A DNA stretch of 64,000 nt from Candidatus Woesebacteria bacterium GW2011_GWB1_39_10 (GCA_000993205.1 LBVU01000003.1:161008-225007); one strand, 5' to 3'. Counted from the stretch's first letter, positions 17,659-27,028 are shown. Made by a program: numbers and translations. The notes: generated by a model not told the origin, from the sequence alone.

Positions 17659-18237
17659 TCAATAAGTAACTTCCGTTGACTTACTTAGGGAATAATCTTT
17701 CCCCCATGTAGTGATGAAATTACCGATGGTTGTGGGTTGAAAGTACCATATTTCCAGAAGTCCACCGTCTTTATGTCCGAGGTAAGCTATGCCGTTTGCA
17801 GGATAAACATAAAGATCAAAAGTTGAATTTGGATATTTATTGTAAAGAATATTAGGAGCGGTTCCGTAAATACTTACAATATTAGGAGATTTTATTGTAT
17901 CGTGAGCGCTTACAATTTCTTTAATAAAAACAACTTTGCCGCTCTGAATAATCGCAATATGATGCCTAAGTTCGCTTGTAGATTTATATTCGTCTGTTTT
18001 TTCTGAACCATTGATGGTTGTTCTAAGGGGGGTGCCTAAAATCTTATTTAATTCTTCTTCTGTGGCCACTCCGGGAATAATATCTTTATAAGAAGCTGTT
18101 TTCGGTGCCGGAGTGGGTGAGGCAGAAGGAACATTTTTTTCTCTTGTTAGATAGGCATCGCCGACAATTGCAATGAGAACTATAATTATTATCCAAACCC
18201 AAGCGTATTTTTTAAAAAAAGAAACTATTTTTTGCAT
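17659..18237 (-). CDS. hypothetical N-terminally anchored membrane protein
   Basis: N-terminal TM WVWIIIIVLIAIVG, Pro-rich linker, then a domain with no recognisable motif. Confidence 0.4.
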   Translation of the reverse strand: MQKIVSFFKKYAWVWIIIIVLIAIVGDAYLTREKNVPSASPTPAPKTASYKDIIPGVATEEELNKILGTPLRTTINGSEKTDEYKSTSELRHHIAIIQSGKVVFIKEIVSAHDTIKSPNIVSIYGTAPNILYNKYPNSTFDLYVYPANGIAYLGHKDGGLLEIWYFQPTTIGNFITTWGKDYSLSKSTEVTY

Positions 18238-18269
18238 ACTTATTAATTATATATCACAAGCACTCTGTG

Positions 18270-25565: not shown

Positions 25566-25970
25566 TTAAAACTTTTTACCCTTCATTGTTAGCAGGCTTG
25601 ATCCCAGCATCTTTCCGATTTCTTTGATTTCTCTTGTAAGATCTACAACCTTTGAGCTATCTACAAGATTAGAATCTTTCAGAAGAGATAACCAGTATTC
25701 AGTTTCGTTTGCGCTTTTGAGAGATATCTGAAAGTAATTGATAAAATCTTTTTTTGATGATGATGCTTTGGCTTCAATTATATTTGCACCAACAGAAAGT
25801 GCCGCTCTCAATAGTTGGTCGGATATTATCCAGTAGACCCTTTTTGATGGAAAATTGCTGACAAAATTAATAATACTAAGTGAAAAGTGATAACTTCTGT
25901 ATTTCAAGTCAGATTTGAGATTTAAATTATGGTTATTAGATATTAGTTTTGAATTATTAGTTAGTATCAT
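25566..25970 (-). CDS. four-helix-bundle protein (23S rRNA intervening-sequence protein / DGR Avd-like family), copy A
   Basis: ISDQLLRAALSVGANIIEAKASSSKKDFINYFQISLKSANETEYWLSLLKD matches the family core (GANI.E ... A.gSa.E..YWL.L). Confidence 0.7.
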   Translation of the reverse strand: MILTNNSKLISNNHNLNLKSDLKYRSYHFSLSIINFVSNFPSKRVYWIISDQLLRAALSVGANIIEAKASSSKKDFINYFQISLKSANETEYWLSLLKDSNLVDSSKVVDLTREIKEIGKMLGSSLLTMKGKKF

Positions 25971-27028
25971 TGTTGAACGGTTTGAGCATTTGGTTGAATT
26001 GGATTACTAATAGTTGGCATTACTTCTTGAATAATTCTTCTTCCCTGAACCAAAATCGGCGGAATAAGTTGACCGGAAGCATCAAAAGTAACAGGGCTAA
26101 ATTCGTAACCATCTTTTTCTGTAACAATACTGTACTTCCCGTTTTCAAGTGGGGTTATGGTTATAAAATGCCCGACCTTGTTACTTCTTAAGGCGCGTAC
26201 AGGGCGACCTGAGGAATCTCTTATTTCCATAATCGCTCCTTCTATTATTTTTCTTTCCGCATCCACCACCTGTCCGACCACTACGTTCGGGTAAGTTGGG
26301 GGATTGGGAGGGGCCGCGTCCACTGAGAAAATGGCGGCTGTTGTTGAAACCATCTCGTTTCCAGCGATAATCGGATTTACTTGAGTAGCTGATATTTGTG
26401 GAGAGGTATAAACCGATTCCTGACGTTTTTCTTCTACAACAAGATGCGGCATCTGGGCGGGGACTTTAACAGGAACGTTTTGGGGAATAGCGATTTCGGG
26501 TTTGGTTACAGGCTCAGACTGTTGAGGAACGGGGACAACGGCGGGAGTCTTTGTTGGTGTTACGAGTCCCGAGGCAATTCCCATCAAAGTTGCAAAAAAT
26601 CCTTTCTCTGCATTCTCAAGCTTGTCTGTGGGCTCTGATTTCTGGCCCGGGGATGACAAATACTGTTCAACGGCTTGTTGTTGTGGCCCGGGAACGGTAA
26701 CTGGAGTGGCCGGTTCATCCTGGAATATTTTAGGGGGAATGGTTATCTTTTTCCAAAAGAACTCGGTTGGAGCATAAATAGCTCTGAAAAAGGCAAAAAT
26801 CCACTTTTCTAAGGGGCGTTCTTCAAGGGGAAGGAATGCCAAGGCAACCCCCAAAATTGCCGAGACAATTACAAAAGGCCATTTAATAATTCCTACAAGT
26901 GGGGCTGAATAAAAGATAAGAGCCACCAGAAGTCCTCCTGCAAGTTGAAAGAATTGCTTAAGGGTCATATCTCCCACCAACCTGAATTGGTATGAGCTTA
27001 TATTTTGCGGTATTGCGTGTTGTTCCAT
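25967..27028 (-). CDS. PrgI/VirB3-like T4SS membrane protein with a C-terminal carboxypeptidase-regulatory-like beta-sandwich domain
   Basis: N-terminus YQFRLVGDMTLKQFFQLAGGLLVALIFY plus two TM helices resembles PrgI-family VirB3 homologues; C-terminus VVGQVVDAERKIIEGAIMEIRDSSGRPVRALRSNKVGHFITITPLENGKYSIVTEKDGYEF. Confidence 0.55.
   Translation of the reverse strand: MEQHAIPQNISSYQFRLVGDMTLKQFFQLAGGLLVALIFYSAPLVGIIKWPFVIVSAILGVALAFLPLEERPLEKWIFAFFRAIYAPTEFFWKKITIPPKIFQDEPATPVTVPGPQQQAVEQYLSSPGQKSEPTDKLENAEKGFFATLMGIASGLVTPTKTPAVVPVPQQSEPVTKPEIAIPQNVPVKVPAQMPHLVVEEKRQESVYTSPQISATQVNPIIAGNEMVSTTAAIFSVDAAPPNPPTYPNVVVGQVVDAERKIIEGAIMEIRDSSGRPVRALRSNKVGHFITITPLENGKYSIVTEKDGYEFSPVTFDASGQLIPPILVQGRRIIQEVMPTISNPIQPNAQTVQQ

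Follow-up and report, generated by a model that had tools for sequence, protein, structure and literature searches.

The 64,000-nucleotide stretch of Candidatus Woesebacteria bacterium GW2011_GWB1_39_10 analysed here (GCA_000993205.1, LBVU01000003.1:161008-225007; the window hereafter) carries the genes of a type IV secretion system (T4SS), first described in an initial annotation as a minimal Gram-positive-type locus. All of the genes named there are found where they had been placed, on the minus strand and in that order. They belong to a tight minus-strand row of seven genes, 17659-27453, which we judge to be operon-like because the gaps between successive genes, from 27453 down to 17659, are 41, -4, 44, 72, 4 and 32 nt. 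The row opens with a four-helix-bundle (4HB) protein of the 23S_rRNA_IVP family (127 amino acids (aa), 27070-27453), which lies just outside the coordinates of the initial annotation. It is followed by a PrgI/VirB3-like protein with a beta-sandwich (353 aa, 25967-27028), a second 4HB protein (134 aa, 25566-25970; Pfam 23S_rRNA_IVP, E 1e-26), a TrsD/TraD-like protein (228 aa, 24835-25521) and a VirB4 precursor (1191 aa, 21187-24762) with an intein of 583 aa (22195-23943, VirB4 aa 274-856). A predicted membrane-anchored metallopeptidase with an HExxH motif (970 aa, 18270-21182) and a small anchored protein that had not been listed before (192 aa, 17659-18237) complete the operon. Just beyond its end lie dnaN (15268-16392) and dnaA (13635-15026), and the window, which also encodes yidC, jag, leuS, tsaD, dnaG, rpoD, smpB, tmRNA and six tRNAs, is chromosomal. 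The locus is found, with identical proteins, on several independent Rifle groundwater assemblies, and its open reading frames (ORFs) are real genes and not chance ones, since they are conserved across dozens of species. In one of the loci and contigs compared, which are labelled L001-L170, VirB4 is split into genes of 744 and 348 aa and the 970-aa gene into genes of 791 and 166 aa (L001, ERZ28564302 scaffold_1713, an assembly from the same population); these splits are likely assembly errors or strain-level frameshifts. L002 and L003 are intact. A scan of the window for promoters and terminators gave counts not above shuffled expectation.

The VirB4 protein scores 352.6 bits against NCBIfam NF045971 (conju_CD1110, cut-off 325) and matches Pfam P-loop_TraG (E 3.5e-24), and BLASTP aligns it with PrgJ of pCF10 over PrgJ 216-782 (26% identity, E 5e-43). 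The spliced form, of 608 aa and of CD1110/MPF_FATA type, is without the N-terminal ~200 aa of full-length VirB4 and PrgJ. Its identity amounts to 58-89% with the VirB4 of 80 species from the candidate phyla radiation (CPR), and to at most 37% with any plasmid VirB4. By NF045971 score and pairwise identity, it would thus group with the VirB4 proteins of Patescibacteria, in line with the earlier proposal of an episymbiont-type T4SS rather than a conjugative plasmid.

The 228-aa product, which had been left as an unknown, matches the N-terminal part of VirB4_plasma, the NCBIfam model of mycoplasma integrative and conjugative element (ICE) VirB4 (positions 103-234, E 1e-6), as well as the TrsD (TrsD/TraD) model (E 8e-5), and has a precomputed PF26593 TraC-like match. 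Among 35 orthologs, the N-terminal part of VirB4_plasma is matched by all 35 and TrsD by 33. In two related species, TrsD and VirB4 occupy a single ORF of ~800 aa (L027:1865-4378 and L048:378-2831), which is a natural fusion or the unsplit ancestral form. Because of these N-terminal matches, the N-terminally short VirB4 and the single ORFs, we assign the 228-aa protein as TrsD, the free-standing, detached N-domain of VirB4. As for the 353-aa protein, its match to Pfam PrgI is borderline (E 4.5e-6, 27.6 bits against a cut-off of 27), that to CarboxypepD_reg has an E-value of 1e-4, and the two models are matched by 34 and 33 of 35 orthologs respectively, so that the fusion of the two domains recognised in the initial annotation is borne out at the level of the family. 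Its N-terminal part is a hairpin of two transmembrane (TM) segments (aa 26-71), from which a linker rich in Pro and Gln leads to a prealbumin-like beta-sandwich at the C-terminus. The 4HB gene that follows, between PrgI and TrsD, overlaps the PrgI stop by 4 nt, and the two genes are translationally coupled through this overlap.

The boundaries of the VirB4 intein are exact, as given by alignment with intein-free orthologs whose extein identity reaches 96% and 90%. It is inserted inside the Walker A motif, between GAGK and S, and displays Ser1, a TKDH block B, a terminal HN and Ser+1, together with LAGLIDADG-type motifs, one of which (LGLTTSEG) can be read straight from the sequence. Both Pfam Intein_splicing (65 bits) and LAGLIDADG_3 (69 bits) are above cut-off, so that the intein-bearing VirB4 first reported stands, and by its motifs the insertion qualifies as a class 1 intein with a LAGLIDADG homing endonuclease. 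It is missing from every one of the 80 closest species representatives. The GAGK|S site of VirB4 is nevertheless occupied by an intein of 36-69% identity in more than 35 metagenome contigs (L090-L136), in which the exteins of these diverged VirB4 genes are intact, and a few relatives (L124, L128; L125, L127, L129, L131) reside in other or more divergent P-loop proteins. Since the identical site is occupied in so many contigs, it can be proposed that the P-loop intein is a recurrent homing allele of CPR VirB4. Inteins of VirB4 have previously been counted in Firmicutes and Proteobacteria (PMC4760082), and are not mentioned in the papers on the Patescibacteria T4SS (PMC12102498, PMC10633639).

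The system extends beyond the operon, and the locus is therefore not minimal: a VirB6-like gene, a gene for a lysozyme-like protein and eight pilin genes prolong it to 41166, all on the minus strand. Membrane topology places the truly polytopic protein of the window (573 aa) at 31876-33597, outside the coordinates initially considered. A hydrophobicity scan gives it ~8 hydrophobic segments, arranged as a signal/TM segment, a ~150-aa ecto-domain and ~7 TM segments. Its family comprises more than 1000 homologs, all unannotated; none of 45 members matches any relevant Pfam model, a PDB sequence search came back empty and the hhalign probability against PrgH is 0.05. The AlphaFold2 model of the protein has a pLDDT of 73.6, its three best PDB matches by Foldseek are all TrwI/VirB6 of R388, and two methods agree on the VirB6 fold. 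We propose from this model that the 573-aa protein is a structural homolog of VirB6 (TrwI)/DotA, and that the family probably represents the 'missing' VirB6 of Microgenomatia.

Next in the row is a secreted Cys-rich protein (931 aa, 34082-36877) with an N-terminal TM/signal segment and 30 Cys. A C-terminal lysozyme-like region is recognised through its orthologs, two of ten of which match PF18896 SLT_3 (E 1.4e-7), and the conserved Glu-Ser/Thr (E-S/T) motif of the family aligns to aa ~744 of the window protein. It is a candidate VirB1-type glycosidase, possibly also associated with the pilus; its gene is likewise flanked by the pilins and the VirB6-like gene in L011, L013, L014, L016, L018 and L022. 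The pilin array, which had been noticed at 36.9-41.2 kb and does belong with the locus, consists of eight PF18895 T4SS_pilin (VirB2-type) genes at 36884-41166. The first gene of the cluster encodes a 130-aa pilin with a long signal-peptide-like leader (40774-41166; E 6.6e-9) and the last of the eight a 93-aa pilin (36884-37165; E 2.9e-6, 27.7 bits against a cut-off of 26.6). The other six stand in tandem at 38138-40229 (38138-38479, 38488-38868, 38855-39244, 39241-39591, 39592-39888 and 39894-40229; E 2.9e-11 to 0.059, four above the gathering score), and two helices with a GGDP/K loop form a pattern common to all pilins of the tandem array. Mean pairwise identity among the eight is 26%.

The complete T4SS accordingly spans 17659-41166 on the minus strand, in the order of eight pilins, 931-aa protein, VirB6-like 573-aa protein, PrgI/VirB3, TrsD, VirB4, 970-aa protein and 192-aa protein. 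In L014 the same genes, in that order, are contiguous with dnaN and dnaA on one strand; L011, L013, L018 and L022 keep this order minus only a detectable 192-aa gene, and L016 fits it to the end of its contig. Comparison with relatives, which had been suggested at the outset, shows the order PrgI-TrsD-VirB4 in roughly 70 of the 80 related loci. The 34 loci from other species that are fully flanked all contain PrgI and TrsD; the VirB6-like gene lies upstream of PrgI in 15 of them, and a gene of the 970-aa family is adjacent to PrgI-TrsD-VirB4 in 16. In each of the 34, PrgI-TrsD-VirB4 lies within 10 kb of dnaA/dnaN, as published (PMC12102498). On account of this proximity, neither the locus nor its pilin array can be regarded as the accessory island originally suggested; the comparison argues for a vertically conserved, origin-proximal core locus.

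The 970-aa protein is Gly/Ala-rich and has an HExxH domain, as the initial annotation had noted, and does not appear to be a polytopic VirB6-like component. It begins with a conserved N-domain of ~450 aa that contains a coiled coil, followed by a hydrophobic block rich in Gly and Ala (aa ~510-662), a DUF7507-like beta-sandwich and a C-terminal HExxH...ExxAE domain, in which the motif reads HEVTHH. An exhaustive profile search gives 1166 cluster representatives for the family; an earlier word-indexed search had given 7 homologs, Gly/Ala-rich words having probably saturated the candidate list. Peptidase_M23 is found at the C-terminus in 30 of 50 family members, sampled because their match stopped before the C-terminus, and the rest of the family keeps HExxH...ExxAE, with H, E, H, E and E invariant in 22 sequences. 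A profile of the HExxH domain matches the Pro-Pro endopeptidases PPEP-1/2 (E 0.0016-0.0025) and anthrax lethal factor (E 0.005), values that are marginal, with alignments that run from HExxH to the C-terminus, and the similarity to family M34 is marginal but coherent. VirB6 was considered for this protein and rejected: no Pfam, NCBIfam or PDB profile matches it, it has no T4SS profile similarity, its one compact Gly/Ala-rich hydrophobic block is unlike the VirB6 layout, and orthologs end in Peptidase_M23. The M23 and HExxH C-termini, and the position directly after virB4, where pCF10 has PrgK, a cell-wall hydrolase of 871 aa anchored in the membrane, and the Pontibacillus cluster L170 a 1050-aa M23 peptidase, lead us to predict that it is the tethered, membrane-anchored peptidase of the T4SS. 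It would then be a functional analogue at the PrgK/VirB1 position, and hhalign detects no sequence similarity between it and PrgK.

The gene of the 192-aa protein, the last of the operon, occupies the position of PrgL in pCF10. The protein has an N-terminal TM helix and an extracytoplasmic tandem alpha-beta4 domain (BLIP/DUF4309/BamE-like), and the possibility of a VirB8/PrgL analogue was ruled out by this fold and by hhalign. That it binds or regulates the peptidase encoded next to it is guesswork, from what the BLIP-like fold often does. Profile searches against T4SS components thus recovered VirB4, PrgI, TrsD and the pilins, and found no VirB6 in the 970-aa protein. When hhalign was run with family alignments against single pCF10 sequences (PrgH, PrgI, the PrgJ N-terminus, PrgK and PrgL), nothing was significant; such single-sequence templates are too weak, and Pfam and NCBIfam profiles were relied on instead.

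Taken together, these genes are very probably a Patescibacteria-clade T4SS, derived from the MPF_FATA type, in the chromosome of a member of the Woesebacteria (Microgenomatia) next to dnaN/dnaA. A system of this kind, without relaxase and with pilins, is already known from ultra-small episymbiotic bacteria, and it is nothing unusual for the lineage. In the saccharibacterium Southlakia epibionticum, a Gram-positive-like T4SS with a pilin array is essential for epibiotic growth, as established by transposon sequencing, and no coupling protein or relaxase is recognisable in it (Wang et al. 2023 Cell, PMC10633639). A survey of Patescibacteria (Quinonero-Coronel et al. 2025 Microb Genom, PMC12102498) found that their VirB4 proteins form a monophyletic clade related to MPF_FATA, that TrsD and PrgI are the commonest virB4 neighbours, that VirB2-like pilin arrays occur above all in Microgenomatia and Saccharimonadia, that relaxases are almost lacking, that the genes are often close to dnaA/dnaN, that in Microgenomatia VirB6 is 'scarce', and that VirB8 hardly occurs; on each of these points the window agrees with the survey. 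A coupling protein (T4CP/VirD4), a relaxase and VirB11 are absent from the ORFs of at least 300 aa in the 64-kb window, by Pfam and NCBIfam scan, as had been stated from the start, and no Walker A motif is present in its large unassigned proteins. Since these three components are lacking in the window, it is unlikely that the system is conjugative. To judge by S. epibionticum, its role is most likely the export of proteins or some other part in the interaction with a host.

A mechanism can be hypothesised from what is known of R388 and pCF10; what was observed here is the identity and conservation of the components. The VirB4 precursor would first excise its P-loop intein, by which the Walker A sequence GAGKS would be regained. 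VirB4 hexamers, docked at the membrane via PrgI and TrsD, could then supply the energy to extract VirB2-type pilins and polymerise them on a VirB6 platform, while the lysozyme-like and metallopeptidase proteins would make a local opening in the cell wall. The pilus or channel so formed would finally contact a host cell.

Several points weigh against such an interpretation. The VirB6 assignment relies on a medium-confidence model (pLDDT 73.6) with weak Foldseek E-values (0.026), and no sequence profile ties the 573-aa protein to TrbL/VirB6 or PrgH. The M34-like match is marginal (E 0.0016), the window copy of the 931-aa protein is itself below the SLT_3 threshold (not even E 0.1), and no VirB8-like (NTF2-fold) component was found in the window. 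The splicing competence of the intein is deduced from its motifs. T4CP homologs are often encoded far from virB4 (PMC12102498), and the search made here covered a 64-kb window. Lastly, substrate, direction of transport and the very existence of a pilus are deduced from the genes.

A more specific proposal takes the last two genes of the operon as a host-directed pair, a T4SS-tethered protease and its regulator, and the VirB4 intein as a conditional switch of assembly. The M34/PPEP-like endopeptidase would clip host-surface or adhesin proteins at the contact site, the M23 domains that replace it in orthologs would perhaps match different host envelopes, and peptidase activity would be gated or inhibited by the 192-aa protein with its BLIP-like fold. 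The recurrent P-loop intein might then act as a post-translational, conditional switch on an essential host-interaction machine. This combination of roles is speculative, and we consider it rather unlikely as a whole.

It could alternatively be proposed that the machine takes up or exchanges DNA, like Helicobacter ComB or archaeal Ced, and imports host DNA or nucleotides. The lack of a relaxase or T4CP in the window fits this reading, as do a comF-like phosphoribosyltransferase gene at 47219-47893, the competence genes found near the T4SS in class ABY1 (PMC12102498) and the faint CedA matches of two members of the TrsD family. These CedA matches (E 0.008) are nevertheless at noise level, no ComB- or Ced-specific component is significant in the window, and the T4SS of S. 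epibionticum is essential, yet deletion of comEC abolishes competence without loss of viability (PMC12857230), so that we hold uptake to be unlikely. A remnant of a Gram-positive ICE or plasmid, that is, an accessory island, could account for the homology of VirB4, PrgI and TrsD to MPF_FATA conjugation genes, for the toxin-antitoxin modules and other insertions inside the cluster and for a serine recombinase at 59594-61105. Such an origin is very improbable in view of the constant proximity of PrgI-TrsD-VirB4 to dnaA/dnaN in all 34 fully flanked loci; moreover, no relaxase, T4CP or integrase is adjacent, the recombinase lies 18 kb past the end of the cluster with housekeeping genes between, and the GC content is unremarkable outside the Gly/Ala-rich coding stretch. 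One might also suspect that in this strain the locus no longer works or is in decay, with an intein-interrupted ATPase and a cluster broken by mobile insertions, given the intein's occurrence in none of the 80 closest species, the insertions absent from L008 and L009 and the split genes of L001. This is hardly credible: no ORF is broken in the window or in L002 and L003, which are independent assemblies, the extein shares 96% identity with an ortholog that has no intein, the intein retains all its splicing motifs, and more than 35 diverged VirB4 genes, their exteins intact, keep the same insertion.

A Patescibacteria-clade T4SS thus remains the preferred reading, and the insertions within its cluster deserve description of their own. 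In this strain they comprise two DUF6922-AbiEii modules, a 978-aa protein, an AAA_14/DUF4143 gene and several 4HB genes; the 4HB, AbiEii and AAA_14 insertions are absent at the corresponding places in L008 and L009, including the 4HB gene between PrgI and TrsD. Five 4HB genes (23S rRNA IVP/Avd-like), all on the minus strand, are scattered through the cluster (25566-25970, 27070-27453, 28617-28853, 33670-34026 and 40356-40721), one of them encoding only 78 aa, and a 4HB gene directly upstream of PrgI is also found in L009, L019, L020, L023, L036 and L040. Their Avd-like character could evoke a diversity-generating retroelement; this was discarded, no reverse transcriptase being present in the window and the Avd scores being far below cut-off. 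The two modules, each of a DUF6922-like antitoxin and an AbiEii nucleotidyltransferase toxin, lie on the plus strand at 27501-28489, between the VirB6-like and 978-aa genes and PrgI, and at 37230-38118, where the module splits the pilin array. The 978-aa protein (28906-31842, plus strand), apparently cytoplasmic, is encoded between the VirB6-like gene and the PrgI operon; searches of Pfam, NCBIfam, PDB and phage sequences gave nothing for it, it lacks a Walker A motif, and none of the 80 related loci has a homolog. Unrelated opposite-strand genes of 781 and 710 aa occupy its place in L008 and L009, which suggests a variable slot. The AAA_14/DUF4143 ATPase gene (16389-17633, plus strand) stands between the last T4SS gene and dnaN, and similar genes are located near the clusters of L043, L080 and L088.

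Immediately beyond the other end of the cluster, a 596-aa SpoIID-domain protein and a 143-aa protein are encoded on the plus strand at 41206-43420, divergently from the first pilin gene. SpoIID is a peptidoglycan-remodelling family, and the protein may be a further wall-remodelling partner of the T4SS. The large serine recombinase mentioned above (CcrB/XisF-like, 503 aa) abuts a tRNA-Asn gene (59555-61105 together), and a LOOT RNA (Rfam RF03000, 83 bits) is found 2.5 kb beyond it, at 63629-63737; this is possibly where an integrated element has its border, one that has nothing to do with the T4SS. Three consecutive genes on the plus strand at 56746-59463 resemble those of the beta and alpha subunits of succinyl-CoA ligase and of citryl-CoA lyase, an ATP-citrate-lyase-like or citryl-CoA set that is unusual for a genome-reduced CPR bacterium.

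Among T4SSs, only that of the Patescibacteria is known to be indispensable for the growth of its bearer. The present locus opens no new category, the system being already in the literature, and its value lies in the details, namely a VirB6-fold candidate, a modular peptidase, an SLT-like protein and a recurrent P-loop intein. With the 573-aa family, of more than 1000 "hypothetical proteins", there is a specific candidate for the Microgenomatia VirB6 not found in the 2025 survey; the large protein downstream of virB4 would be a modular peptidase, M23 or M34-like, and the expected VirB8 position is held by no protein of VirB8 fold. Such assignments would make structural modelling of the Patescibacteria T4SS, and the interpretation of its cryo-electron tomography, more complete.

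At the level of single components, the 573-aa protein shares 8-17% sequence identity with TrwI/VirB6 of R388 and DotA of Legionella Dot/Icm and has no TrbL/VirB6 Pfam match; it is roughly twice as long as TrwI, and carries an ecto-domain at its N-terminus and an extension at its C-terminus. The 970-aa protein has in common with PPEP-1/Zmp1 and anthrax lethal factor (MEROPS M34) the HExxH, the downstream ExxAE and the alignment of the C-terminal helix, whereas its domain is anchored to a large membrane protein encoded in a T4SS operon, and is exchanged for Peptidase_M23 in orthologs. At the level of the operon, the MPF_FATA plasmids (pCF10, PrgH-PrgI-PrgJ-PrgK-PrgL; pGO1/pSK41, TrsC-TrsD-TrsE) and the window have a gene order in common, that of a VirB6-like protein, a VirB3-like protein, (TrsD), VirB4, a large anchored cell-wall hydrolase and a small single-TM protein, and their VirB4 proteins belong to one NCBIfam family (CD1110). 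The window differs from these plasmids in having no relaxase, T4CP or PrgB-type adhesin and in having VirB2-type pilins. Its VirB4 is split into TrsD and the ATPase, its small single-TM protein is BLIP-like whereas PrgL has the VirB8/NTF2 fold, and no similarity to PrgH, PrgK or PrgL is detectable.

The closest VirB4 outside the CPR (37% identity) is that of Pontibacillus sp. ALD_SL1, on an 898-kb replicon (NZ_CP062975: 351801-361354, L170). The gene order there begins with two pilin-like genes, after which come genes for a protein of 779 aa, a two-TM protein of 116 aa and a TrsD-like protein (E 2e-47); VirB4 (621 aa) and an M23 peptidase (1050 aa) follow. Given its pilin-like genes, VirB2-like pilins do not seem to be confined to Patescibacteria among systems of MPF_FATA type. 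This cluster differs from the window in its host, a member of the Bacillota, in its replicon, typed as non-mobilizable, in its place beside flagellar genes and in its mere two pilins; its PrgI-like protein has no beta-sandwich and its VirB4 no intein. The nearest parallel is the Patescibacteria-clade T4SS itself, as in S. epibionticum (SEML1_0006-0019), which has in common with the window the PrgI/VirB3, TrsD and VirB4 core and a divergent array of VirB2-like pilins, whose mean pairwise identity (26% in the window) is published as ~25%. In both, peptidase and lysozyme genes lie near virB4, dnaA/dnaN are close, and no relaxase or T4CP is nearby. Compared with the published systems, that of the window, in a member of the Microgenomatia, is set apart by the 573-aa family as VirB6 by predicted fold, by the P-loop intein of VirB4, by an M34-like rather than an M23 peptidase module, and by a cluster interrupted by toxin-antitoxin, 4HB and other genes.

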